Shown one piece after another: positions 9,175 through 43,371 of a DNA stretch of 64,000 nucleotides. Each line of letters opens with the position of its first letter. Within the stretch, counting starts at the first letter, position 1. Both the position numbers and the translations under genes were made by a program. The stretch is from NCBI GenBank assembly GCA_001872455.1, contig MNXJ01000071.1, positions 55,830 through 119,829 on the forward strand, in the 5' to 3' direction. The notes under the pieces were generated by a model. That model worked only from the letters and a program-made list of their open reading frames with translations. It was not told where the DNA came from and made no database searches. Source of the stretch: Anaerolineae bacterium CG2_30_57_67 (GTDB lineage: Bacteria; Chloroflexota; Anaerolineae; Anaerolineales; Villigracilaceae).

Positions 9175-12100
9175 CTAAAGATTGTAGACTTTCACTTCTC
9201 CATCAACTTGTAAAAAAAACAGCCGGGTTTTGGGGCAAAAGCCAAGTTGGGCAGTAACAGCGGCGGCATAACGCGCCACTTGATGATCGTACCGTTCGCG
9301 ACGGATGGTGGATTGCGCTTCGGATTCGCTGCGGACATCGTCCGTCTTGAAGTCAATGATGAACCAACCTGCTTCGGTGTGGTAGAGCAAATCCATGATG
9401 CCGCGCTCGTCAGGTAAATCATAGCGGACTTCGTGGTGACGTTCGGCGGAGTCGAGTTCGGCAAAAAGGGGATGTGCGCGCAAGCGTTCCAACAGGCGGC
9501 GGGATTCTTGAATGGCGGCGTAGATTTCTTTGGGGTCGGTCAATCCAGATTCGAGCGCAAAGGGTTTCAGAAAATTATCAAAGTCATCATCGGGGAAATG
9601 CCAGCGGCGGATGGCTTCGTGGACGAGGCGTCCCACCAGCCAGGCGGGGGCGCGCGCGGTCTTGGTTTTCGAGACGATGCGCCAGACGCGCTGGGGTGGG
9701 TCGGATTCGTTGGCGCGGAGTTTCGCATCGCGGTCGGCGAGGGGAATGTTTGGGGCGAGGGGCGGGAGGATATCAGAACTCACCCCCAGCCCCTCTCCCT
9801 TTAGGAGAGGGGAGTCTGTCGAAACAGAATCAGGCTGAGGCGCGGAAGGAACGTCCGCTGGGGAGGAGGAATAGATCGAGGCGGAGATTCCGTCTGGGAG
9901 CAGGAAATGCTCGGGCGTAGACATCTCCACCTGTGCCTGCGGCACTGGCGCAGGCAAAAAAGAGAACTTGGAAAGCCAACCTGAAAGAGAGAACGTGCCG
10001 TCTTTTTTGAGTTTGACGTGACCGCTGACGATGAGTTTTTCTTTGGCACGGGTCGCGGCGACGTAAAGCAGGCGGTTGTCCTCGGCTTCGGCGCGGTCGT
10101 CTTCGAGGCGGGCGGCAAGTTGCCAGGCGGTGGAATGGAAGTCGTCATCGCGCAGATCAAGCAGGAGGTTGTTCGTGAGTTGGATTTTTGCGCCCGCGCC
10201 GCGATGTTCATAAGCCGCGTCAGCCAGGACGGTGAGGGGGAATTCGAGACCTTTGGCTTTGTGAACGGTCATCAGTTGAACGGCACCCGCACTGGCGGAA
10301 TCGGCGGGGGCTTCGCCTTCGCGCAGGCCGACATCACGCAAGGTTTTAACGTAGGCGAGAAAGTCGGTCAGGCTGACGAGGCGCGAGCGGTGCGCGTCGG
10401 CGAGTAATTTTTCCACGTTGCGGATCATGCGCGCGCCGTTTGGGCTAGAGGCGAGGATGGCACGGTAGTGGGTAAGGTCGAGCAGGCGTTTGAGGATAGC
10501 GGCGGCGGGAGCGCGGGAGGACAAATCATGAAGCTCGGTGAGGATGGATAAATTATGAATTAGGAATGATGAATTAGGAATTGAATTACGGAGGCTGTCA
10601 ATAATTTTAGCAGGAGTACTTGATTGATTGGGAAAGCGCAATTTGTAGATTTCCGCGTCGGGAAGAGCGAAGGCGGGGGAGCGGAGCAGGCCGACGAGGG
10701 CGAGGTCATCGGTGGGGTCGGCGATGGCGGTGAGGATGTTGAGCAGGTCGCGGATTTCGGGACGGTCGTAGAAGCCGCGTCCCGCCACGGTGACGAAGGG
10801 AATGTCCGCCGCTTCGAGCGCGTCTTCGTAGACGGGGAAGGCGGTGGAGGAGCGGAAGAGCAAAGCCATGTCGCCCCAGTCAAAGCCTTCGTTTTGATGG
10901 AGTTCGCGCAGACGGCGGGCAAGGGCTTGCGCGGATGCGGCGCGTCCTTCGTCTGCGGATTCTCCCATGCCAAGATGAAATTCGATGAAGGGCGGTTGGA
11001 TGTTTTCGCGTTTTGGATTCTGACGATAGGCGTGCAATGGCGCGAAGGGAACGGCATAGGGACGCGCGGGGTCATCAGTCTCGCCGAGGATGGGAGCCAG
11101 CAGGGAGTTAAGCGAATCGAGCAGAGGTTTGTGCGCGCGGAAGGTCAGGTCGAGGTCAATCAGTTCGCCGCCAGAAGATTGGATGTCGGCTTGAACCTGG
11201 CGGAAGACGGTCACATCGGCGGAGCGAAATTTGTAGATAGATTGTTTGGAGTCGCCCACGATGAAGAGGTCAACCCCCACCATCATCCCCAGCCCTTCTC
11301 CCGAGGGGAGAAGGGAGTCTGCTCCCTCTACCTTAGGGAGAGGGTTTGGGTGAGGGGAAAATCCCGTCAACGCGTAGACGATTTGTCTTTGGCGGTCATT
11401 GGTGTCCTGAAATTCATCCACGAGTACGGCGCGTAATTCAGATTGGAGTTCGGCGCGGACGTTGGGGTACGCCGTCAGTAATTGCGCGGTGAGACCTTCG
11501 AGATCATCGAAGTCGAGGGATTGACGTTCGTTCTTGCGTCGTTGATATTCGAGTTGCGTTTGGTCAAGCAGGCGGTGGATGGCGGGGAGATGCGCGGCCA
11601 GTTGTTCGTCCAGCGCGAAGCGGGATTTCTCGGCGAGGAATTTGAGATGTTCATCGTAAATTTCACGCAAAGCTTTCATCGCGTCGCGGATGGTTTCGAT
11701 ATCAGCATCAGCCCAGTTGCTTTTTTGTCCCTGCGTGGAGATGGCTTTGCGAAGCGCTGTGAGACTCAAAAGAACGGCGTCCCAGCTTTGCGCGGCGCGA
11801 GATTGTTGGATTTCATCCCATTTTACAAGAACGGCTTGGCGAGCAAGTTCAAGTTTGTCTTCGGGAGAGGTTGATTGCAAGGATGCGAGATTGGATAATG
11901 CATCAACCCAAGTTTGAGCATCGAGATACGTGGCAAGATAAGAGGAAAGAGCAAGTTCAAAACTTGTACACGGATTTGACGGATTACGCGGATTCTCACG
12001 GATTTCTTTTTTGTTTTTTCCGTGCAACTCCGTGAAATCCGTGTCATCCGTGTACAAAGATTTTACATCCAACCGACGGCTCATCAACGCGTTGAGAATT

Positions 12101-20114: not shown

Positions 20115-20237
20115 CTGGTGAATACCCACAAATCGTCAAATGTCGTCCTGCGGCCAAAAGCGACATAAATATCGCGCTACGTTGTGCGATATTTATGTCG
20201 CTTTACATGGTAGAGCAAAGATATGGGGTATCACCGA
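20115..20237 (+). mobile_element. MITE-like element family A, copy with expanded core palindrome
   Basis: CTGGTGAATACCCAC...GGGGTATCACCG termini. The core GCGACATAAAT/ATTTATGTCGC is split by a 20-nt hairpin. Confidence 0.7.
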
Positions 20238-20263
20238 TAAGTCTTGTCTGGATTTCGAGATTA

Positions 20264-20304
20264 CAAAAAGCGTCCCGAAGATTTTTTACCTTCGGGACGC
20301 TTTT
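20264..20304 (-). terminator. intrinsic terminator downstream of acr3
   Basis: AAAAGCGTCCCGAAG, 8-nt loop, CCTTCGGGACGCTTTT. The T-run on the minus strand starts directly after the stop at 20305. Confidence 0.75.
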
Positions 20305-21426
20305 CTATCTCACCAACTTTTGATCCGGCGGACAGGCTTCCGCCGCCGCTGCGAGCATGGCCGGGTTGGACGAGACCGCCCCGCCGTAGTATTTCTTTTG
20401 GAAGAAGAATGCCACATTAACCAGCCCAATCATCACCGGCACTTCCACCAGCGGACCAATCACTGCCGCGAAAGCCGCGCCGCTGTTGATGCCAAAAACC
20501 GCCACTGCTACGGCAATCGCTAATTCAAAATTATTGCTGGCAGCAGTGAAGGAGAGCGTCGTCGTTTGCGAATAGTCCGCGCCGAGGCGGCGCCCCATCC
20601 AGAATGAGACGAGGAACATCAGCACGAAATAAATCAAGAGCGGGATGGCGATCCGAACCACATCCAGCGGAATCTGGACGATGAGATTCCCTTTCAGCGA
20701 GAACATGACCACAATCGTAAAGAGCAACGCTATCAGCGTCAGCGGGCTGACTTTGGGAACGAAGTTCTTGTAGTACCAGTCGCGCCCTTTAGCGCGTACC
20801 AAAATCAGGCGGGTGAGAAATCCCGCCAGGAAGGGAATGCCCAAATAGATGAAGACGCTCTCGGCAATCTGCCCGATGGTGATATTGACGGTGACACCGT
20901 CCAGCCCGAACCAGGTCGGCAGGATGGTGAGAAAAACGTAAGCATAGACGCTGTAAAACAAGACTTGAAAGACGCTGTTGAACGCGACCAGCCCAGCCGC
21001 GTATTCGGTGTCGCCGTGCGCCAGTTCGTTCCAGACGATGACCATGGCAATGCAGCGCGCCAGTCCAATCATGATTAATCCCGCGATATATTCGGGATAG
21101 CCACGCAGAAAAACGATGGCGAGTACAAACATCAGCACGGGGCCGATAATCCAGTTTTGAATCAGCGAGAGCGACAGAATCTTTTTATTGCGAAAGACAT
21201 CGCCCAATTCTTCGTATTTGACTTTGGTAAAGGGCGGGTACATCATCAGAATCAAGCCGATAGCAATCGGGATATTCGTTGTCCCGACCGAGACGGCGGC
21301 GTTGAAGGCTTTTACGCCTGACGGGGCGAGAAAACCAATCGCCACGCCGAGCGCCATCGCCGTGAAAATCCACAGCGTCAGGTAGCGGTCAAGGAAGGAA
21401 AGTTGTTGAGTAAGGGATTTTTGCAT
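20305..21426 (-). CDS. acr3: arsenite efflux transporter ACR3
   Basis: 373 aa, 10 TM, family-typical N-terminus [13 protein letters not shown]. Confidence 0.9.
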
Positions 21427-21447: not shown

Positions 21448-21474
21448 GTAGCGCAAATCAGAGATTTGCGCCAC
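21448..21474. repeat. REP hairpin unit
   Basis: GTAGCGCAAAT-CAGAG-ATTTGCGCCAC, located between the RAYT stop and the acr3 start. Confidence 0.8.
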
Positions 21475-21485
21475 GGCTTGCGGGG

Positions 21486-22133
21486 TTAAAAATCGTTCAA
21501 ATAAGAATATTTCCAATCTTGCCAGTCTGTCGCCAGCCCGGCTTCGACTGGGTTGTTCAAAATGTAACTGATGATATTTTCAAACTCGCGCTGGTTGCGA
21601 ACTACATGGTCATAACTCTCGTGCTGCCAAAATGCGCCGCTGCCGCCAAGAATCTTGCGGCAGGCATGACCTGTGCGTCCTTTAAGCAATTTCATGGCGT
21701 GGCTCAGGGATGTGTAATGCTGCCCTTGCTTCAGCGGCGGCGGCGTGGCGACGCCTTGCAGGTCAATCAAAATATGCGCGTGGTTAGGCATGATGCAATA
21801 ACAAATTAAGCGGTAGGTCTCTGGATGCAAAGCGTGAACTTCACGTCTGACTATTTCCGCAACTCTTGGGTCTTTCAACCACTGCGGACCAGCGCTGTGC
21901 GCCAGCAGAGCGTCATAGCGGGCAAACATTTTTTTAAACAGTATGTAGCGTTCTTCTGCCAGCGCTTCGCCTTGAAAATTTCGCGCTAAATTTTCTTCTG
22001 CTTTTTGGCGTTCAAGGTGCAAGGATTCCAACGCTTCTTGCGGCAGAGACCCTGCCAGCCGAAAGGTGACAAAATATACCGCGTTCGGCGGATGCCAGTG
22101 GGGTAAACGTCGGTAGAAGAGTTCTGTTTCCAT
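21486..22133 (-). CDS. REP-associated tyrosine (Y1, HUH) transposase, RAYT/IS200-like
   Basis: Contains RRLPHW...YFVTFRL, HUH motif MPNHAHILI and catalytic Tyr context WQHESYDHVV. Flanked by REP hairpins. Start METELFY at 22133. Confidence 0.8.
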   Translation of the reverse strand: METELFYRRLPHWHPPNAVYFVTFRLAGSLPQEALESLHLERQKAEENLARNFQGEALAEERYILFKKMFARYDALLAHSAGPQWLKDPRVAEIVRREVHALHPETYRLICYCIMPNHAHILIDLQGVATPPPLKQGQHYTSLSHAMKLLKGRTGHACRKILGGSGAFWQHESYDHVVRNQREFENIISYILNNPVEAGLATDWQDWKYSYLNDF

Positions 22134-22142
22134 AATGAAATT

Positions 22143-22283
22143 GTAGGGCAAGTCTGTGACTTGCCGCGCAAATTGGAAATTTGCGCCATGTAGCGCAAGT
22201 CTGCGACTTGCGACGCAAATTGGAAATTTGCGCCACGTAGCGCAAGTCTGCGACTTGCGACGCAAATCAGAGATTTGCGCCAC
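22143..22283. repeat. three tandem 47-nt REP doublet units
   Basis: Units at 22143-22189, 22190-22236 and 22237-22283. Each is GTAGCGCAAGTC-N4-GACTTGCG plus GCGCAAATT-GGA-AATTTGCGC. The last unit has the CAGAG loop variant. Confidence 0.9.
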
Positions 22284-22671
22284 GCAGCAACGCTGGGATT
22301 TCAATCAACATATCATCGCGCACCTTGCGGAAATCGGCAATATCATCGGTCTTGGCGGGGTCGGGAAAACTATGATGGACGCGCTTGCCTTTCCCGAGCC
22401 AGACGGGACATTCCTCCGCCGCCGAATCGCAGACCGTGACGACGACGTCAAACTCCGCGCTGCGGAATTCGTCCGCGAGTTTGGAGCGTCCCTCGTGTTG
22501 GATTCCAATCTCTGCAAGCGCGGCAATCGCTTTGGGGTGGACGAACCCCGCGGGCTTCGTCCCTGCGCTGACGGCTTGCCACTCGTCCGCCAGCCGCGCA
22601 TTGACAATTGCCTCCGCCATTTGCGAGCGGCAGGAATTACCTGTGCATAAAAATAAGACCTTGCGTTTCAT
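22267..22671 (-). CDS. arsC: arsenate reductase, LMW-PTPase (thioredoxin-coupled) type
   Basis: CTGNSCRS P-loop, later Cys (VTVCDSAAEECP) and DP motif. The last 5 codons and the stop lie in REP unit 3. Confidence 0.9.
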   Translation of the reverse strand: MKRKVLFLCTGNSCRSQMAEAIVNARLADEWQAVSAGTKPAGFVHPKAIAALAEIGIQHEGRSKLADEFRSAEFDVVVTVCDSAAEECPVWLGKGKRVHHSFPDPAKTDDIADFRKVRDDMLIEIPALLRGANL

Positions 22672-22706: not shown

Positions 22707-22958
22707 TCAAATGGCAGGCACGGAAATCTTTCCGCCACTGCTCAACACTTCGTTATTGATCAACACCAGCGGCAACTGCGCTCCTGCTGGCATAGGCGGA
22801 CAATCCGCGTCGAACAAATCAAAATAGCAGATTTCCACCGCATCGCCAAATTTTGTTTTCAACTGTCCCGCCGCCCAGTTGGCGACATCGCGCCACGAAT
22901 CTTTAACGCCGCTGGAGCAGGCAATCGGCGCGCCGATAATGTGAACGAGAACGCTCAT
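22707..22958 (-). CDS. hypothetical 83-aa protein, possibly YuzD/DUF1462-like thioredoxin fold
   Basis: The pattern VHIIGAPIACSSGV...WAAGQLKTKFGD...LPLVLINNEVLSSGGK resembles YuzD by eye. Overlaps the arsA stop by 4 nt. Confidence 0.4.
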   Translation of the reverse strand: MSVLVHIIGAPIACSSGVKDSWRDVANWAAGQLKTKFGDAVEICYFDLFDADCPPMPAGAQLPLVLINNEVLSSGGKISVPAI

Positions 22959-24799
22959 GCTTTCACCTGCTCGCCATACGCGCGATTGCCCAACTCCGCC
23001 AGCATCTCCAGCCCCTTCACTTCCTGCGGCTGGAGCGGAATCTCCAGCACGGGCACAGCAAAACGCTCGCGGATTTCCGCCAGATACCTGACCTGCATCT
23101 TGCGCCGCGCCTGTGCAAAGGGCGTCGTCGCCGCTTCGGGCGGGATGACGAAATTCACCACCACCAGCCCTGGCTGAATGCCGACTGTCGCCAATTCCTG
23201 CGCGGCGCGCCAGGCTTCCAAAATCGGCGTGGATTCGGGGTACATCACAAACGCAAACGTGCTTTGCGCCGGGTCGCGCATCATCTCAATCACCTGTCCG
23301 AAGCGCTGCTTGGCAACATCATCGGCGGCAGTCGCATCCACCGAAGCAAAGACCTTCACATCAATCTGCTGGCTCCAATCCAGCGGCAGTTCCAGCAGAC
23401 GCATGGTGTGTCCCGTCGGCGCGGTATCGAACACCACCGCGTCCCAATCCGTCTGCGAAGCGTAATCAATAAACTGGTCAAACGCCGCCATCTCTTCGGT
23501 GCAGGGCGAATCGAGTTCTTCTTCCATCACCTTAATTGCGCTTTCAGGTCGTCCGCGCTGACGGGCGTCATTCAGAATACGCGCCTTGTACGTTTCGGCG
23601 GCGGCTTTCGGGTCAATCTTGACCGCCCACAGGTTCGGCTGTCCACTGACCGCAGTGACATCATCGCCCACAGGCTGACCCAACACGTCGCCCAAATGCG
23701 CGGCGGGGTCAGTCGTCAGCAGCAGAGTCTTGCGTCCCTGCTGCGCCAGCCAGACCGCCGTCAGGCACGAAGCGACTGTTTTGCCGACGCCGCCCTTACC
23801 CGCAAAAAATACTGTGCGGCGATGACTGTTCGGCTGGATGCGGGCGCGGATTTCGTCAATGGATGAAGTTTCTACGCTGATAATTTTCCCGCCGCTCGAT
23901 TCCGACTCCGCTGGGGCTTGCTCGCCGTCAAAGAAAATTTTCCCCACCCCGCGCAGCCGCGCCGCGCCCGTAATCTCGCCCGAAAGCAGAGTCATGCGCT
24001 GGGTCGGGTACGGCAGTTCGGCGCTGATTTGTTTCAGGTAGCGCGCCTGCATCTCGGAGCGAGCCGCAAACAGCGGGTTGGATTTTTCCGAAGCGGGGAT
24101 AATCCCGTTGATGATGATGCGGTAGGTGTGAATCCCCAGTTTGGTCAGTTCGCTGATGGCGCGTTTTGTCTCGCGGATGGCTATCGCTTCGGGGTGCAGG
24201 ACAAAGGTAAAGGTCGAGAGCGATTCGTCGCGTAGGGCGGCCAGCGCGTTTTCGTATTTATGTTTCGCGTCTTGAATCGCGGCGGCGGGACCGATGCAAG
24301 TCTGCCCGCTGCCCGCGCTGGCGGCGTCAATGGATTGACTCCACTCGGCGGGCAGTTCCAGCAAACGGATGGTGTGACCCGTGGGCGCGGTGTCAAAAAT
24401 AATGACGTCAAATTCAGGCGCGGATTCGCCGCGCACGATGAAATCGGTGAAGCGATCGAAGGCGGCGACTTCCGCCGTGCAGGGACCGCTCATCTGCTCT
24501 TCCATCACCTGCACCATCTGGGCGGGGAAGGCGGCGCGCAACGGCGACATGGCGCGGTCAATGTATTCCTGCGTGGCTCTGTCGGGGTCAATTTCCATCG
24601 CCGATAAATTGGGGACGCCCGCAATCGGCGTGACGTGATGACCAATTTTCTGCTCGAATACATCCGCCAAATTTGACGCGGGGTCGGTGGTGACGATGAG
24701 CGTACGCTTGCCTTCATCGGCATAGCGGACGGCGTGCGTGCAAGCCATGCTGGTCTTGCCCACGCCGCCTTTGCCTGAGAAGAAAATGAATTGGGTCAT
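22955..24799 (-). CDS. arsA: arsenite-stimulated ATPase ArsA (two-domain)
   Basis: Two GKGGVGKT P-loops, two DTAPTGHT signature sequences, and Cys in the PCTAE and PCTEE contexts. Confidence 0.92.
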   Translation of the reverse strand: MTQFIFFSGKGGVGKTSMACTHAVRYADEGKRTLIVTTDPASNLADVFEQKIGHHVTPIAGVPNLSAMEIDPDRATQEYIDRAMSPLRAAFPAQMVQVMEEQMSGPCTAEVAAFDRFTDFIVRGESAPEFDVIIFDTAPTGHTIRLLELPAEWSQSIDAASAGSGQTCIGPAAAIQDAKHKYENALAALRDESLSTFTFVLHPEAIAIRETKRAISELTKLGIHTYRIIINGIIPASEKSNPLFAARSEMQARYLKQISAELPYPTQRMTLLSGEITGAARLRGVGKIFFDGEQAPAESESSGGKIISVETSSIDEIRARIQPNSHRRTVFFAGKGGVGKTVASCLTAVWLAQQGRKTLLLTTDPAAHLGDVLGQPVGDDVTAVSGQPNLWAVKIDPKAAAETYKARILNDARQRGRPESAIKVMEEELDSPCTEEMAAFDQFIDYASQTDWDAVVFDTAPTGHTMRLLELPLDWSQQIDVKVFASVDATAADDVAKQRFGQVIEMMRDPAQSTFAFVMYPESTPILEAWRAAQELATVGIQPGLVVVNFVIPPEAATTPFAQARRKMQVRYLAEIRERFAVPVLEIPLQPQEVKGLEMLAELGNRAYGEQVKA

Positions 24800-24820
24800 T
24801 GTTTTTCCTTGATGTAATGT

Positions 24821-24867
24821 GTAGCGCAAGTCTCTGACTTGCGGCGCAAATTGGAAATTTGCGCTAC
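24821..24867. repeat. 47-nt REP doublet unit
   Basis: GTAGCGCAAGTCTCTGACTTGCGGCGCAAATTGGAAATTTGCGCTAC. Confidence 0.9.
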
Positions 24868-24941
24868 GATAGCGTGGCTTTCACTTCATCCATCGTCGGA
24901 TACGCGCCCACTTTAATCACCTTGCCGCGCACAACGATAAT
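24868..24941 (-). pseudogene. relic 3' end (last 24 codons plus stop) of a second arsD
   Basis: 65/74 nt identical to 24991-25064. Translates IIVVRGKVIKVGAYPTMDEVKATLS*, versus ...TADEVKAALS* in the intact arsD. Confidence 0.8.
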
Positions 24942-24943
24942 GT

Positions 24944-24990
24944 GTGGCGCAAGTCTCTGACTTGCGGCGCAAATTGGAAATTTGCGCTAC
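24944..24990. repeat. 47-nt REP doublet unit
   Basis: Differs from 24821-24867 at 1 of 47 positions. Contains the arsD stop codon (24987-24989). Confidence 0.9.
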
Positions 24991-25334
24991 GATAGCGCGG
25001 CTTTGACTTCATCCGCTGTTGGGTACGCGCCCACTTTGATGACCTTGCCGCGCACAACGATAATCGGCAGGGCGTCCATTTGTTTCTCGCGGACGAGTTT
25101 CATCACTTCGGCATTGCCCAAAAAGGCGTTGGGGCTGCTCGCCATCTGATAGCGTTCCACGCGCAAGTTGTCGCGCTGGAGCGACATGACCATCTCGTTC
25201 ACGTCCAGCAAAGTTTGGTCAAGGACGGGCCCGCATAGTCCAGTGGGGCAGCACATCGGCGGGTCGAAGAATTCCACGTCCGCGGGGGCAATCGAAATCG
25301 GCAGGGTGTTGAGCAAGGGGATAACGTCAGTCAT
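24987..25334 (-). CDS. arsD: arsenic metallochaperone ArsD
   Basis: FDPPMCCPTGLCGP (Cys12/13/18 equivalents). The true start may be GTG at 25277 (VEFFDPPMCC) rather than ATG at 25334. Confidence 0.88.
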   Translation of the reverse strand: MTDVIPLLNTLPISIAPADVEFFDPPMCCPTGLCGPVLDQTLLDVNEMVMSLQRDNLRVERYQMASSPNAFLGNAEVMKLVREKQMDALPIIVVRGKVIKVGAYPTADEVKAALS

Positions 25335-25361: not shown

Positions 25362-25419
25362 GTAGCGCGAGATTTATCTCGCACTACGCTGTGCCGCGCA
25401 AGTCAGAGACTTGCGCTAC
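25362..25419. repeat. REP variant pair (two hairpins)
   Basis: GTAGCGCGAGAT-TT-ATCTCGCACTAC and GCGCAAGTC-AGAG-GACTTGCGC. The second is inverted relative to the 24821 unit. Confidence 0.75.
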
Positions 25420-25776
25420 AGACGGTCCGCAGGTCAGGCGGCGGGGTTGGATGCGCGCTGGGTCGAAGAACGCCCCAAAAGCGGCGTTGAGTTCATCCAG
25501 CGCGGCGCGGTTGATGGAGTAGTAAATCCAGCGCGAGTCGATGGCGTCGCGTTCCACGTCCACTAATCCGACTCCGCGCAGTTTGCTCAGGTGATGCGAA
25601 ATCAGGTTGGGCGCCATTTGCAAGGCGTCACCCAGTTCGCAATTGCATTGCACGCCGTCTATTAGCAGATTGATGATCAACAGGCGTTTCGGCTCGGCGA
25701 GAACTTTGAGCCGTTCTGCCAATGTTTCCAAGTTCACAGGGGCGGGATGGAGCTCATCCGAAATATAGTTCAACAT
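25384..25776 (-). CDS. arsR: ArsR/SmtB family metalloregulator
   Basis: CNCEL metal site followed by HTH LQMAPNLISHHLSKLRGVGLV. The C-terminal tail VAQVSDLRGTA* is encoded by the REP. Confidence 0.88.
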   Translation of the reverse strand: MLNYISDELHPAPVNLETLAERLKVLAEPKRLLIINLLIDGVQCNCELGDALQMAPNLISHHLSKLRGVGLVDVERDAIDSRWIYYSINRAALDELNAAFGAFFDPARIQPRRLTCGPSVAQVSDLRGTA

Positions 25777-25783
25777 AAGTTGA

Positions 25784-25811
25784 ATTATATAGGGAAACAA
25801 AATTTTGTCAA
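25784..25811 (-). promoter_or_regulatory. candidate sigma70-type promoter of the ars operon
   Basis: On the minus strand: TTGACA (25811-25806), 16-nt spacer, TATAAT (25789-25784). Only 7 nt separate the -10 from the arsR ATG. Confidence 0.45.
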
Positions 25812-25909: not shown

Positions 25910-26200
25910 TTAATAGCTGCTGTTACGCAGCCTTGAGAGATTGCAACCCATCGTGGACCACACGAATCGCTTTGGGGTATAATCGTGCCCGCAAAACAAA
26001 ATGATTGAAATGTCGCTTGCCACGGGAATGTCCGTGTCATTGACATGATATAGACAGTTCAGCAGATTGAACCCTTGCACTGCACGGCATTTTGTATGAT
26101 CATAATACCAGCACATCACTTCGTTTTCATCGGTATACGGTTTTTCTTGGATCGTGTCATCAAAAATCGGAACAGCCTCCTCCTGTTCCACTTCGCGCAC
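25910..26200 (-). pseudogene. DDE transposase fragment (IS4/IS701-like)
   Basis: PIFDDTIQEKPYTDENEVMCWYYDHTKCRAVQGFNLLNCLY resembles the first-Asp region of DDE transposases. The ORF is truncated and no IS ends were seen. Confidence 0.5.
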
Positions 26201-26550: not shown

Positions 26551-26638
26551 CTAGTGTCGGAACTTTATAAAGTTGTAGGGTAAAAACGGCTGAATTGCGC
26601 CGTTTTTACCCTACAAAATCGGAAAGTTCCGGTACTAG
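26551..26638. repeat. 88-nt three-segment palindrome
   Basis: Core 18-bp perfect stem TTGTAGGGTAAAAACGGC, 8-nt loop, GCCGTTTTTACCCTACAA, extended by CGGAACTTT/AAAGTTCCG and CTAGT/ACTAG. Confidence 0.7.
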
Positions 26639-26713
26639 CCGTACCTTGGCCGCTGACCCTTTTATGGGTTGGCGGCCATTTTCTTCCCGGCCAAGCCGGA
26701 GAAAGCAGTAAAA

Positions 26714-26983
26714 ATGGAACCAAGAATTTACGTTGGCAACCTTGCCAAATCAACCACACAAGATGATCTCACCACCCTGTTTACGCAAGCCGGAAAAGTC
26801 GAATCGGTGGAAGTCATCAAAGACCGCGATAGTGGCCTGCCCAAAGGCTTTGCTTTTGTGACCATGGGTTCGCAGGCTGACGCCGATAAGGCCGTCGGCA
26901 TGTTTAACGCTTATTTGCTGGCCGAAAAAGAACTCAAGGTCAACATCGCCAAACCGCGCGTAGAGCACGCTTCGACCCGCTAA
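26714..26983 (+). CDS. RNA-binding protein (single RRM)
   Basis: RNP-2 IYVGNL and RNP-1 KGFAFVTM motifs. 89 aa. Confidence 0.88.
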   Translation: MEPRIYVGNLAKSTTQDDLTTLFTQAGKVESVEVIKDRDSGLPKGFAFVTMGSQADADKAVGMFNAYLLAEKELKVNIAKPRVEHASTR

Positions 26984-39093: not shown

Positions 39094-42000
39094 ATGTCCT
39101 TCGTTCACCTGCACACCCACACGGTTTACTCGCTCCTGGATGGTTTTTCCAACATCAAGAAGCTGGTCAAACGCGCCAAAGAAATGGACATGCCCGCGCT
39201 GGCGATTACCGACCACGGCACCATGTTCGGCGTGGTCGAATTCTACAACGCCGCCAAAGAAGCCGGGGTCAAACCCATCATCGGCGTGGAAACTTACATG
39301 GCCGCGCGTGGCATGCAAGACCGCGACTCCAAACTGGATAAAAAGTCCAGCCACCTGCTGCTGCTGGCCGAAAATGAAACCGGCTACAAAAACCTGCTCA
39401 AAATCACCTCCGCCGCGCAAATGGATGGTTTTTACTACTATCCGCGCATTGACCACGACTTTCTGGCGGCGCATTCCGAGGGGCTGATTGCCACCTCGGG
39501 CTGCATGTCCGCCGAAATTCCACGTCATCTGCTGGAGGAAAAACCCGAAGAAGCCGTGCGCCGCATGAACTGGTACTTTGACGTTTTCGGCCCCGACCGC
39601 TTCTACGTGGAATTACAGCAGCACAACATCGCCGAAATGGTGGGGCTCAACCGCCGCCTGGTGGAAATGGGCGCAAAATACTCGGCCAAATTTGTCGCCA
39701 CCAACGATGTTCACTACATCGAACCGGAGGACGCCGATTACCAGGACGTGCTGCTCGCCATTCAGACGGGAAAATTACTCAGCGACCCCGACCGGATGCG
39801 CTACGACAGCAAAACCTTCTACCTGCGCTCCCCGCAGGAGATGAGCCGCCTGTTTGCCGAAATCCCCGAAGCGCTGAGTCACACCCTCGAAATCGCCGAA
39901 CGCTGCAACGTGGACCTCGGTTTCAAGGGCTATCACCTGCCCGAATTCCCCGTCCCGCCCGAGTTTACCGCCGAAACCTACCTGCGCCACCTGTGCGACG
40001 AGGGCCTCGAAAAACGCTACGGCGCGCACAAAACCGACCCGGAAATCTGCGAGCGGCTCGAATTTGAGTTAAACGTCATTCACACGATGGGCTTTGACGC
40101 CTACTTTCTCATCGTGTGGGATTTGTGCCGTCACGCCCGCGAAAATGGCATCTGGTACAACACGCGCGGCTCCGGCGCTGGATCGCTGGTGGCCTATTCG
40201 CTTTTCATCACGCTGGTAGACCCCATCGCGCATCACCTGCTTTTTGAGCGCTTTCTCAATCCCGGGCGCGTTTCCATGCCCGATATTGACCTGGATTTCC
40301 GCGATGACCGCCGCTCCGAAATGCTGGTTTACGCCGCCCAAAAATATGGTGATGACAAAGTGGCGCAAATCATCACCTTCGGCACGATGGCCGCGCGCGG
40401 TGCGCTGCGCGATGTGGCGCGCGTGATGGATATTCCCATCCCCGAAGTGGACAAGATTGCCAAACTTGTCCCCAATATCCCCGGCAAACCCATGTCGCTT
40501 TCCGAAGCGCTCGACCAGGTGCCGGATTTCAAGGCCGCCTACAACAGCGACCCGAAAATCAAAAAGCTGGTGGACACCGCCATTCACATGGAAGGCACCG
40601 TCCGCAACGCCGGCACGCACGCCGCCGGGTTGGTGATTTCGGACAAGCCGATTACCGAGTATCTGCCCATTCACCGGCCAACCTCCGGCTCGGAAGAATC
40701 GCCCGTCAAAACCGTCACCCAGTTTGAGATGGGCATCCTCGACGGCATGGGCATGCTCAAGGTGGATTTCCTCGGCCTTTCCACGCTGACGGTGATGGCG
40801 CGCGCCTGCGGCATGATTAAAGAACACTACGGCAAAGACTACGACCTGAACAACATCCCGCTCGACGACCCGGAAACCTTCAAATTACTCGGCGAAGGCA
40901 AAACGGCGGGCGTCTTCCAATTGGAAGGCACGGGTATGACGCGCTACGTCGTCGAGATGAAACCCAAAAACCTCGACCACATCATCGCCATGGTGGCGCT
41001 CTACCGCCCCGGCCCAATGGATTTCATCCCCAGCTACATCCGCCGCATGCACGGCGAAGAACCGATTGTCTATCGTCACCCCTCGCTGGAGCCAATTTTC
41101 AACGACACCTACGGCATCCCGGTCTACCAGGAACAAATCATGCGCGCGGCAGTGGAAGTCGCCGGCTACAGCCGCTCCGAATCGGACGACCTGCGCAAAG
41201 CCATTTCCAAAAAACAATTTGAGAAAATCGCCAAGCACAAACAAAAATTCATCCACGGCGCGGTAGACAAAGGCGTGATGAACGAAGCCACCGCCACGGC
41301 GATTTTTGAAGACTGGGAACAATTCGCCCGCTACGGCTTCAACAAAAGCCACGCCGCCGATTACGGCCTCGTCTCCGTACAGACCGCCTTTCTGAAAGCG
41401 CACTACCCCGCCGAATACATGAGCGCGCTCATGTCGGTTTTCAAAGACGACAGCGCCAAAGTCTCGCTCTACATCGCCGAAGCGCGCGCCCTCAGCATCG
41501 CCGCGCTGCAGCCCGACGTGAACCATTCCCTGCTGGATTTCAGCATCGAAGACCCGCTGGACGAAAAAGGCCAAAAACATTCTGCCATTCGTTTTGGCAT
41601 GAGCGCCATCAAAAATGTCGGCATCGGCCCGGTGGAATTGATTTTGGCTGGCCGTCGCGTGAACGGAATCGAAAAACCCTTCAGCGACCTGAACGACCTC
41701 GCCCAGCGCGTGGATTTGAAATCCGTCGGCAAGCGCTCGCTCGAATACCTGATCAAGGCCGGAGCGTTGGATTCGTTTGGTGAGCGCGCCGCCCTGCTGG
41801 CCGCCCTCGATCAGTTGGTCGCCGTCAGCGCCGGTCACTTCAAAGCGGTGGACAGCGGCCAGATGTCGCTCTTCGGCGCGGCAACCGGCGTTCAGGCGCA
41901 GAACATCAGCCTCGGCAGCCAGAAAACCGACAAAAAAGAAGCCCTCGCCTGGGAACGCGAATTGATGGGCGTCTATCTTTCCGACCACCCGCTCAAAGCC

Positions 42001-43371
42001 TACGAGGAACTGCTGTTAAGCGGTGTCAGTCACAACTCGCTGACGTTGAGCGAGGCCACCAGCCCCCAACCCTGCCGCGTGGCGGGTTTGGTGGTTTCCT
42101 CGCGCCCCTACAAAACCAAAAAAGATACCATGATGGGTTTCGTGACGCTGGAAGATTTGACCGGCAACATCGAGCTGGTCATTTTCCCGCGCGCCTGGGA
42201 AAAATACCGCGCCCTGTGCGAAGACGGCAAAGTGATTTTGGCGGTTGGCAAAATTGACCCGGCCACCACCCCGCCCAAAGTGCTGGTGGACGAAATTCGC
42301 ACCGATTTCAAGGTCTATTCCTCGGTTAATCAGTTTTCCAGTTCTCCAGTTGACCAGTTATCCAGTTCTTCGGTTAGCCAGTTTTTCAGTTCTCCAGTTG
42401 ACCAGTTATCCAGTTCTCCAGTTAATCAGTTCTCCGGTTATCCAGTTAACCAGTTCTCCAGTTCTCCAGTTAATCAGTTATCCAGTTCTCCAGTTAATCA
42501 GTTTTCCAGTTCCGCCGTCCAACCAGCCAACCGCCCAACCGGACAACCGGACAACCGTCCAACCGGACAACCGGACAACCGGACAACTGCCCAACCGGAT
42601 AACCGCTCAACCGCCCAACCGGACAACCGCCCAACCGCCCAACCGGACAACCGGACAACTGCCCAACCGGATAGCCGCCCAACCGCCCAACCGGACAACT
42701 GCCCAACCGGACAACCGGACAACCGCCCAACCGCCCAACCGGACAACGACTTTACCAACCTGCCGCCCGAACCCGATTTCCCTGACGACTGGGACATGGA
42801 CGTTTCTCCCGCTCCGCTCCGCGCCGCGCCGCCGCCCGCGCCCATGGACGACGCCTTGTACGCCGAAGAACAACAACTGGACAACCGGATAACCGAACAG
42901 CTGGACAACCGAACAACCGAACAACCGGACAACCGAACAACCGAACAACCGGACAACCGGACAACCGAACAACTGGACAACCGGACAACCGAACAACCGG
43001 ACAACCGTCCAACCGGACAACCGGACAACCGGACAACCGAACAACCGAACAACCGCCCGGCCCCACAATTTGATTTTCGCCCCTTGACCCGCGCCGCGCC
43101 CGAACCCGACCTGCCGCCGCGCATGATAACCATTGTCCTGCGTCCCAACGGCGACCCGGAACGCGACCGGCGGCGGCTCAAAAACATCTATTTCATTCTC
43201 ATGTCGCAGCCTGGCAAAGACCGCTTTCAGTTTCAAATTTTTGAAGGCGGCAAAGGTCATCTGATTGATTTTCCCAACGACAGCACGCGCCTGAATGCCG
43301 AACTGCTGACACGCCTGAAAAACCTGACCGGCGACGAAATCTGGCGCATCGAGGACATTAACTACCTGTGA
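39094..43371 (+). CDS. dnaE: DNA polymerase III alpha subunit with a long repeat-encoded insertion near the C-terminus
   Basis: PHP N-terminus FVHLHTHTVYSLLDG, polymerase core, HhH and OB fold (to about residue 1075), low-complexity repeats, then a roughly 100-aa tail. Confidence 0.92.
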   Translation: MSFVHLHTHTVYSLLDGFSNIKKLVKRAKEMDMPALAITDHGTMFGVVEFYNAAKEAGVKPIIGVETYMAARGMQDRDSKLDKKSSHLLLLAENETGYKNLLKITSAAQMDGFYYYPRIDHDFLAAHSEGLIATSGCMSAEIPRHLLEEKPEEAVRRMNWYFDVFGPDRFYVELQQHNIAEMVGLNRRLVEMGAKYSAKFVATNDVHYIEPEDADYQDVLLAIQTGKLLSDPDRMRYDSKTFYLRSPQEMSRLFAEIPEALSHTLEIAERCNVDLGFKGYHLPEFPVPPEFTAETYLRHLCDEGLEKRYGAHKTDPEICERLEFELNVIHTMGFDAYFLIVWDLCRHARENGIWYNTRGSGAGSLVAYSLFITLVDPIAHHLLFERFLNPGRVSMPDIDLDFRDDRRSEMLVYAAQKYGDDKVAQIITFGTMAARGALRDVARVMDIPIPEVDKIAKLVPNIPGKPMSLSEALDQVPDFKAAYNSDPKIKKLVDTAIHMEGTVRNAGTHAAGLVISDKPITEYLPIHRPTSGSEESPVKTVTQFEMGILDGMGMLKVDFLGLSTLTVMARACGMIKEHYGKDYDLNNIPLDDPETFKLLGEGKTAGVFQLEGTGMTRYVVEMKPKNLDHIIAMVALYRPGPMDFIPSYIRRMHGEEPIVYRHPSLEPIFNDTYGIPVYQEQIMRAAVEVAGYSRSESDDLRKAISKKQFEKIAKHKQKFIHGAVDKGVMNEATATAIFEDWEQFARYGFNKSHAADYGLVSVQTAFLKAHYPAEYMSALMSVFKDDSAKVSLYIAEARALSIAALQPDVNHSLLDFSIEDPLDEKGQKHSAIRFGMSAIKNVGIGPVELILAGRRVNGIEKPFSDLNDLAQRVDLKSVGKRSLEYLIKAGALDSFGERAALLAALDQLVAVSAGHFKAVDSGQMSLFGAATGVQAQNISLGSQKTDKKEALAWERELMGVYLSDHPLKAYEELLLSGVSHNSLTLSEATSPQPCRVAGLVVSSRPYKTKKDTMMGFVTLEDLTGNIELVIFPRAWEKYRALCEDGKVILAVGKIDPATTPPKVLVDEIRTDFKVYSSVNQFSSSPVDQLSSSSVSQFFSSPVDQLSSSPVNQFSGYPVNQFSSSPVNQLSSSPVNQFSSSAVQPANRPTGQPDNRPTGQPDNRTTAQPDNRSTAQPDNRPTAQPDNRTTAQPDSRPTAQPDNCPTGQPDNRPTAQPDNDFTNLPPEPDFPDDWDMDVSPAPLRAAPPPAPMDDALYAEEQQLDNRITEQLDNRTTEQPDNRTTEQPDNRTTEQLDNRTTEQPDNRPTGQPDNRTTEQPNNRPAPQFDFRPLTRAAPEPDLPPRMITIVLRPNGDPERDRRRLKNIYFILMSQPGKDRFQFQIFEGGKGHLIDFPNDSTRLNAELLTRLKNLTGDEIWRIEDINYL
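42323..42746 (+). repeat. 53 in-register octanucleotide repeat units inside dnaE
   Basis: 24 units of CAGTTNNC/CGGTTNNC (42323-42514) followed without phase break by 29 units of CCGSMCAA (42515-42746). Confidence 0.9.
42877..43052 (+). repeat. 22 octanucleotide repeat units (CCGRACAA) inside dnaE
   Basis: CTGGACAA CCGGATAA CCGAACAG CTGGACAA CCGAACAA ... counted unit by unit. Confidence 0.9.

Follow-up and report, generated by a model that had tools for sequence, protein, structure and literature searches.

A RAYT gene and its REP hairpins embedded in the arsenic-resistance operon of an Anaerolineae bacterium

INTRODUCTION

Sequences of the repetitive extragenic palindromic (REP) type are accompanied in some genomes by REP-associated tyrosine transposases (RAYTs, or TnpA-REP proteins). 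When and why RAYTs are expressed, and what role they play for their hosts, are open questions, and the Escherichia coli protein is auto-inhibited and barely active. Here we describe a RAYT gene and its REP hairpins lying inside an arsenic-resistance (ars) operon, between arsC and acr3, in Anaerolineae bacterium CG2_30_57_67. The window, that is, the whole stretch of DNA analysed, is 64,000 nt long, and all coordinates are window positions. An earlier annotation of this DNA (the original prediction) had proposed a RAYT and a REP array at this site; its observation is confirmed with small corrections, and its interpretation is partly supported.

The E. coli tnpA-REP gene is always found at one locus (PMC3333891). 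Its product cleaves and rejoins single-stranded REP DNA and assembles tandem BIMEs (bacterial interspersed mosaic elements) in vitro (PMC3333891); Y115 serves as the catalytic tyrosine and N119 as a metal ligand (PMC3479197). Class 2 of the Y1 proteins, to which TnpA-REP belongs, is defined by a Y---NP tyrosine motif, and the residues that read the GTAG tetranucleotide are W94, Q95, E100 (replaced by D in certain subclasses), H101 and R104 (PMC6006769). Within class 2, subclass 2.4 has NH[IFV]H, WQ and YIxNNP motifs, equals RAYT group 4 of Bertels and occurs in Cyanobacteria, Chlorobia, Caldilineae and others, while subclass 2.7, with proteins of about 213 amino acids (aa), has [ND]HVH, WQ and YI[LR][NQ]NP motifs and a D at the E100 position (PMC6006769). 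GTAG REPs have already been reported in Chloroflexi (PMC3733652), and RAYT group 4 has been described as common in Caldilineae (PMC5581495). The original prediction was right that the host is a member of the Chloroflexota, an Anaerolineae, but the novelty that it saw in a REP/RAYT system in this phylum does not hold in view of these reports (PMC3733652, PMC5581495) and of the 'RayT' labels applied by JGI.

RESULTS

The RAYT gene (21486-22133, minus strand, between arsC and acr3) encodes 215 aa, and its start codon is correct, as the N-terminus aligns with those of homologues from the first residues. Judging from sequence and a modelled fold, the protein belongs among the RAYT-type class-2 Y1/HUH proteins and not among the IS200 TnpAs, because of its motifs, its best sequence and fold match (4ER8, E. 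coli TnpA-REP), a near-threshold match to REP_Tyr_transpos and the GT[AG]G REPs that flank the gene. The metal-binding HUH motif, H118-A-H120, lies where it had been predicted, in MPNHAHILI (residues 115-123), and both histidines are invariant in 64 homologues, as are W169, D175, H176, R179, Y190, N194 and P195. The catalytic tyrosine had been misplaced: Y174 of WQHESYDHVV aligns with W99 of 4ER8, whereas Y190 of SYILNNP, which with N194 and P195 forms the Y---NP motif, aligns with E. coli Y115, and N194 aligns with N119. In the same alignment W169, Q170, D175, H176 and R179 occupy the GTAG-reading positions W94, Q95, E100, H101 and R104.

4ER8 was the sole sequence match in the PDB. In a profile search of the kind that the original prediction had proposed, the NCBIfam model REP_Tyr_transpos (NF047646) gave 77.3 bits (E=1e-21) against a cut-off of 80, and Pfam Y1_Tnp (PF01797) gave 21 bits against a cut-off of 23, both marginal misses. 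The AlphaFold (AF2) model has a predicted local distance difference test score (pLDDT) of 92, and its best Foldseek match was again 4ER8 (E=2.5e-8), followed by ISDra2 and IS608 (IS200/IS605 TnpA) at E values of 6e-4 or weaker. An additional helical hairpin, residues 32-78 in the model, separates the first strand, beta1, from alphaA and the core. As originally stated, there is neither a tnpB gene nor left or right insertion sequence ends (LE/RE) at the locus, where the neighbours on the same strand are arsC (LMWPc domain) and acr3 (SBF domain); the 64 kb contain a single Y1 copy.

In each REP unit a GT[AG]G foot comes before a perfect 8-bp stem closed by a 3-nt loop, the consensus being GT[AG]G-CGCAA[AG]T[CT]-nnn-[AG]A[CT]TTGCG. 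Three tandem 47-nt doublets, comprising six footed hairpins (22143-22283), fill the arsC-RAYT spacer, and a single 27-nt REP with a foot on both strands (GTAG...CCAC; 21448-21474) lies downstream of the RAYT gene. The predicted bracketing of the gene by three 47-nt units upstream and one unit downstream is therefore real, but the gaps are 9 nt from array to ATG and 11 nt from stop codon to REP, not 10 and 12. Each 47-mer consists of two REPs in inverted orientation, 1 nt apart and each with its own GT[AG]G foot, such that one footed REP is present per strand; it is a doublet resembling a BIME or a REPIN (REP doublet forming hairpins). The two hairpins proposed for the 47-mer are present, but the form given for one of them, GCAAGTC-N4-GACTTGC, has no match in the array, the real form being CGCAAGTC-N3-GACTTGCG. 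In the minimum free energy (MFE) fold the doublet forms two separate 8-9 bp hairpins with unlike stems (GTC versus ATT); a single long hairpin of the REPIN type was not seen in that fold. All REP units fold as predicted, with z scores of -4 to -8.6 against shuffled sequences. The repeat finder TRF reported 3.1 copies of the 47-nt unit (22143-22288, 90% matching, score 229), and REP patterns were strongly over-represented, with 8 matches to GCGCAAAT-N5-ATTTGCGC (0.2 expected) and 11 to GTRGCGC-N13-GCG (0.93 expected). We also considered, and rejected, a CRISPR-like reading of the array, as the doublets are contiguous without spacers, and a terminator reading, as no T-run follows the units.

Further REPs, beyond those of the original prediction, occur in the same operon. 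A 47-nt doublet of two inverted REPs lies in the arsD-arsA spacer (24944-24990), another adjoins the start of arsA (24821-24867), and a single REP on the minus strand, GTAG-CGCAAGTC-tct-GACTTGCG, lies within the 3' end of arsR (25397-25419). A variant with a GCGAGAT stem and a GTAG foot on both strands (25362-25387) spans the arsR stop codon and lies in the arsR-arsD spacer. Past the acr3 terminator there is a 48-nt near-perfect palindrome (20157-20204; 24-nt arms, 92% complementary) made of two REP-like units whose GCGA[CT]AT stems meet at CTAC/GTTG; this palindrome and the GCGAGAT-stem unit may represent a second REP family. The REP family fills the arsR-arsD, arsD-arsA, arsC-RAYT and RAYT-acr3 spacers. 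REPs also overlap the stop codons of arsR, arsD and arsC and supply C-terminal tails: the final codons of arsR come from REP sequence, the TAG stop codon of arsD sits in the GTAG foot of the neighbouring REP, and the last four codons and the stop codon of arsC lie within the first REP of the array.

The placement of the RAYT gene in an ars operon, which had been noted for the window only, proved to be conserved across a whole RAYT clade. The protein has 1298 homologues at E values of 1e-5 or lower, mostly from Anaerolineae and many of them labelled 'REP element-mobilizing transposase RayT' by JGI. All nine RAYT lineages with 67-100% identity whose contigs are long enough have the gene co-oriented inside an ars cluster; for two more members of this ars-linked clade the contigs are too short to judge. 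The arrangement is arsR...arsC-ORF-REP array-RAYT-acr3 at loci L120-122 (RAYT 78% identical to that of the window; ORF, open reading frame), arsC-REPs-RAYT-REPs-acr3 at L123 (75%), arsC-RAYT-acr3 at L134 (72%), arsR-thioredoxin-REPs-RAYT-REPs-ArsP permease with acr3 1 kb upstream at L124-126 (71%), RAYT with arsC upstream at L140 (70%), RAYT-acr3 at L132 (68%) and arsR-arsD-arsA-arsC-REPs-RAYT-REPs-acr3 at L127/128 (67%). By contrast, at about 70 loci with RAYTs of no more than 64% identity, not one ars gene was found within 4 kb. The ars-linked RAYTs group together as a single clade by neighbour joining, and their ratios of non-synonymous to synonymous substitution (dN/dS, 0.06-0.15), which are comparable to those of Acr3 and ArsC, indicate that they are under strong purifying selection. 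As synonymous divergence is saturated (dS >1), these low ratios imply that the RAYT gene has long been kept intact at the ars site.

Sister clades are also anchored, at unrelated positions. RAYTs with 58-63% identity lie directly upstream of a xanthine/aldehyde dehydrogenase gene in two loci on divergent contigs (L131, 6001-9648; L137, 3314-6411), downstream of N6-methylase genes (and in L137 also of a PglZ-like gene), and this clade carries REPs of its own, AACAAGTC-tata and GACAAATC-tata. In two other loci (L129 and L130) a sister RAYT is sited after an ABC transporter. Fidelity to one locus therefore looks general for these RAYT genes.

REPs and RAYTs also vary together. In most of about 100 homologous loci that we inspected, GT[AG]G hairpins occur no more than 500 bp from the RAYT gene, and the stems differ by RAYT clade ([CG]GCAA[AG]TC; GACAAGGC/GTCAAGGC; AACAAGTC-tata; GGCAACTG; and others). 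At the level of sequence, this co-variation is the signature expected of cognate REP-RAYT pairs. A RAYT from another phylum, 32% identical to that of the window (Chthoniobacterales, L039, JBPCRH010000074.1, 41-752), is flanked by GT[AG]G-CGCAAGTT hairpins, the core of which is nearly the same as that of the Anaerolineae ars clade. When GTDB representative genomes (596 Gb) were scanned with the REP pattern, at least 117 eight-kb stretches matched, compared with a chance expectation that we estimate at roughly 35 matches. The matches listed, all from genomes other than the window's own, come from Chloroflexota, Acidobacteriota (Pyrinomonadaceae/Blastocatellia) and Verrucomicrobiota (Chthoniobacterales). 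About 95% of them are perfect hairpins, although the pattern demanded no complementarity, and among them the window's stem types dominate in Chloroflexota; almost none of the stretches listed encodes a Y1 protein. Doublets of 47 nt and of the same design were found at non-ars sites in Chloroflexota (L006, L026, L051, L087 and L098). These matches indicate that the REP of the window is a dispersed repeat type in Chloroflexota.

The ars genes appear to form one transcription unit on the minus strand. A TTGACA-16-TATAAT promoter (25784-25811, minus strand) agrees with the sigma-70 consensus at 12 of 12 positions. A 12-4-12 inverted repeat (25763-25790), a candidate ArsR operator, lies over the -10 box and the arsR ATG; it resembles the operator expected for an ArsR/SmtB protein and suggests a possibly leaderless arsR mRNA. 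No T-run terminator was found between arsR and acr3. An intrinsic terminator (20263-20300, minus strand; 11-bp GC-rich stem, 9-nt loop and T-run) starts 4 nt past the acr3 stop codon; it was read directly from the sequence, the prediction tool being limited to loops of 8 nt. The spacer upstream of the RAYT gene consists of REP sequence only, which bears out the claim that the gene has no other space for a promoter, and a promoter scan of this arsC-RAYT spacer gave no convincing site; a weak 9/12 site inside the RAYT gene was not treated as evidence. There is no obvious Shine-Dalgarno sequence for RAYT, whereas acr3 and arsC have one. Since Acr3 is needed for resistance, read-through across the RAYT gene is to be expected, and this makes arsenite-dependent co-transcription of RAYT with the ars genes, as envisaged in the original prediction, plausible.

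There are signs that the arrays change. The MAG contigs L120 and L121 have flanks that are 99.9% identical and encode the same RAYT protein, and in the array upstream of the RAYT gene they carry six (9694-9975) and three (2166-2306) doublets, respectively. In the window, a 123-bp tandem duplication (24815-25060) consists of two copies with 92% identity, each comprising the last 76 nt of arsD and a REP doublet. The two copies show 10 differences, most of which are synonymous when read in the arsD frame, and this suggests that a second, diverged ars operon took part in recombination: the copy proximal to arsA would be the tail of a second, diverged arsD allele, and the arrangement a recombination scar rather than the in-place decay of a fresh duplicate.

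The operon as a whole comprises, in order and all on the minus strand, arsR (25384-25776; 130 aa, HTH_5), arsD (24987-25334; 115 aa, ArsD), arsA (22955-24799; 614 aa, two ArsA_ATPase halves), an 83-aa ORF with no confident family (22707-22958), arsC (22267-22671; 134 aa, of the low-molecular-weight protein tyrosine phosphatase type, LMWPc), RAYT and acr3 (20305-21426; 373 aa, SBF family, with a good Shine-Dalgarno sequence), the domains being those assigned by Pfam. The product of the last gene is named ACR3 arsenite efflux transporter by NCBI. An Rfam search of the region found no known RNA family and only two distant tRNAs. The genome is a metagenome-assembled genome (MAG) of the CG (Crystal Geyser) series. 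The identical RAYT protein, annotated there as 'hypothetical protein', is present in Anaerolineae MAGs of that series together with Acr3 and an ACIII subunit, and the window's contig was found again in many metagenome assemblies.

Some features of the window lie apart from this system. Upstream of arsR, a 96-aa ORF (25910-26200) was considered as a transposase remnant, but it had no Pfam match even at E=5 and we make no claim for it. A small RRM-domain gene (26669-26983, plus strand) has just upstream of it an inverted repeat (26551-26638) whose 40-nt arms are 83% complementary and separated by 8 nt. Near the C-terminus of the DnaE (Pol III alpha) ORF (39094-43371; 1425 aa), about 730 nt of 24-nt tandem repeats (42325-43055) encode octapeptide runs such as QPDNRPTA and SSSPVNQF.

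DISCUSSION

Our results make it likely that the RAYT gene and its hairpins are a genuine REP/RAYT unit, or REPtron, which settled between arsC and acr3 in the ancestor of one group within the Anaerolineae and has since been inherited with the ars operon. Such a unit would pair a class-2 Y1 HUH single-strand DNA nuclease with cognate GT[AG]G-footed hairpins. By analogy with E. coli TnpA-REP, the enzyme would bind REP hairpins extruded in single-stranded DNA, read the GT[AG]G foot, cut and rejoin nearby. Cutting and rejoining would spread REPs and expand or contract tandem doublets, an activity that would account both for the presence of REPs, seeded locally, in all ars spacers and for the variation between arrays. 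The RAYT gene is most likely transcribed only within the ArsR-controlled polycistronic mRNA, as the layout leaves it no promoter space or terminator of its own and Acr3 needs read-through; it is probably poorly translated for want of a Shine-Dalgarno sequence. Folding of the REP hairpins would be expected in this mRNA too. Since the sister RAYT clades have their fixed places elsewhere, the simplest reading is inheritance by descent: a single insertion, passed on to descendants, most simply accounts for the ars position of the clade, and historical anchoring, rather than a dedicated arsenic function, for the arsenic context.

Several observations weigh against this explanation. Both profile scores narrowly miss their cut-offs. 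The hairpins have perfect 8-bp stems, and E. coli TnpA-REP needs a stem mismatch, so that details of recognition may differ. A scan for any GT[AG]G-footed hairpin found no member of the REP family in the other ~58 kb of the window; the visible copies are confined to the ars operon, and a large dispersed REP population in this genome is unproven. The difference between the L120 and L121 arrays could be true variation or the collapse of repeats in short-read assembly. The outer contexts of the ars-RAYT blocks vary (ACIII genes, CrcB, MFS/FAD genes, a kinase/regulator pair or an ArsP permease). Finally, a degraded ars operon with an intact acr3 of 88% identity (L004; Anaerolineae bin_39, JBBITE010000041.1, 1-1712) runs from the tails of arsR and arsD through a REP doublet and a fusion of the first 46 arsA codons with the last 37 arsC codons to acr3. 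Its Acr3, at 89-92% identity, is nested, and its arsC-acr3 spacer of about 40 nt has neither RAYT nor REP. Given the differing outer contexts and the RAYT-less L004, pure vertical descent needs either loss or cassette transfer.

It is possible that there is a functional link to arsenic stress, but we consider it unlikely that the RAYT, the REP hairpins or both have become functional components of the ars operon by co-option. One version of this proposal is that hairpins in the mRNA set the stability or translation of arsRDA-C relative to acr3; another is that ArsR-gated expression of the RAYT couples REP-driven genome plasticity to arsenic stress. The full scheme, for which we see only a small chance, would have the RAYT wired into an ArsR-repressed operon and made only under arsenic stress, REP remodelling gated by that stress, and the spacer REPs tuning segmental mRNA stability. 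Integration would fit the retention of the gene's position through saturated synonymous divergence under strong purifying selection, and also the operon promoter with its ArsR-type candidate operator. REPs recur in the same ars spacers in several lineages, between arsD and arsA in the window, in L004 and in L127, and in all in the arsC-RAYT and RAYT-acr3 spacers; they also overlap the stop codons of arsR, arsD and arsC. However, purifying selection and a fixed locus are general to RAYTs (PMC5581495, PMC3333891), sister RAYT clades are fixed at unrelated loci, and L004 retains the arsC-acr3 junction with neither element in it.

Very unlikely, in our view, is that the REP/RAYT pair helps to move or recombine ars modules between genomes or operons, so that the association reflects co-transfer. 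The differing outer contexts of the ars-RAYT blocks, the second, diverged arsD tail with its REP doublet at the arsD-arsA joint, which resembles a recombination scar, and the deletions in L004 that join ars gene fragments are all consistent with such mobility. Nevertheless, no REP pair cleanly bounds the whole operon; no integrase or tRNA was found adjoining it, and it shows no GC or compositional anomaly, so that the signature of an island was not found. Moreover, loss of outer synteny is ordinary at this divergence, and movement of kilobase segments is not known for a monomeric TnpA-REP. That the gene is an ordinary IS200/IS605 insertion or its decaying relic is scarcely credible. The weak similarity to Pfam Y1_Tnp and the presence of IS200/IS605 TnpA structures among the lower fold matches would agree with such an origin, but the tyrosine motif is Y---NP and not that of class 1, the best matches are to TnpA-REP, TnpB and LE/RE ends are absent and GT[AG]G REPs flank the gene. 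The ORF is also intact, with invariant catalytic residues and a dN/dS of about 0.1, and the locus is syntenic across the clade.

This kind of system is already known, and what is new is a contextual observation, namely the conserved promoter-less position before acr3; among the papers searched, none relevant to RAYT or REP in combination with arsenic or ars operons was found. With a promoter-less RAYT clade placed ahead of an essential efflux gene, and in an operon that is metal-inducible, RAYT expression gains a simple experimental handle. If an arsenic-gated RAYT is confirmed, it would amount to a domesticated transposase under a natural inducible switch and would be the first RAYT with a known expression condition; if the placement is only historical, the locus is a tidy but ordinary case of RAYT locus fidelity. 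In addition, our results document a well-populated RAYT/REP family in Anaerolineae, in which the REP stem co-varies clearly with the RAYT clade, and show that REPs can provide stop codons and C-terminal tails of resistance genes.

Among described systems, the E. coli REPtron (tnpA-REP/yafM, 4ER8) shares with this locus the HUH Y1 fold, a catalytic tyrosine within a Y---NP helix, counterparts of the GTAG-reading W94, Q95, H101 and R104, a gene bracketed by REPs of alternating orientation, tandem BIME-like arrays and a single fixed locus within the lineage. The window's RAYT differs in being only ~19% identical to the E. coli protein, with ~50 extra residues that make up the additional helical hairpin and a D in place of E100; its REP stems are perfect (8 bp, with 3-nt loops) where those of E. 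coli are bulged, and its gene is embedded in an inducible operon without a spacer of its own. IS200/IS605 TnpA proteins (IS608, ISDra2) have the same HUH/Y1 chemistry, act on single-stranded hairpin DNA and use a 5' guide tetranucleotide. Unlike them, the window's RAYT lacks LE/RE ends and TnpB, has another tyrosine motif and is present in one copy in 64 kb, and its fold match to these proteins is weaker, by about four orders of magnitude in E value, than that to 4ER8.

Judged by published motifs, the RAYT appears to fit subclass 2.4 or 2.7 of Quentin et al. (2018). In common with these subclasses it has N-H-u-H, W-Q and YI[LR]NNP motifs, a length near ~213 aa and a D at E100, and, at distances within 1 kb, long canonical GT[AG]G REPs, here six hairpins upstream and one downstream. 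The hydrophobic residue of its HuH motif, however, is Ala, and an ars context has not been described for either subclass. The REPIN-RAYT systems of Pseudomonas (Bertels and Rainey) likewise have inverted-REP doublets, co-variation of REP and RAYT clade, and a RAYT with its own repeat family on its flanks; that RAYT is low-copy and inherited vertically, as the window's probably is. In contrast to those systems, the doublet stems of the window differ from each other, lie 1 nt apart and form two small hairpins instead of one long one, and the REPs are visible only in the ars operon of the 64 kb.

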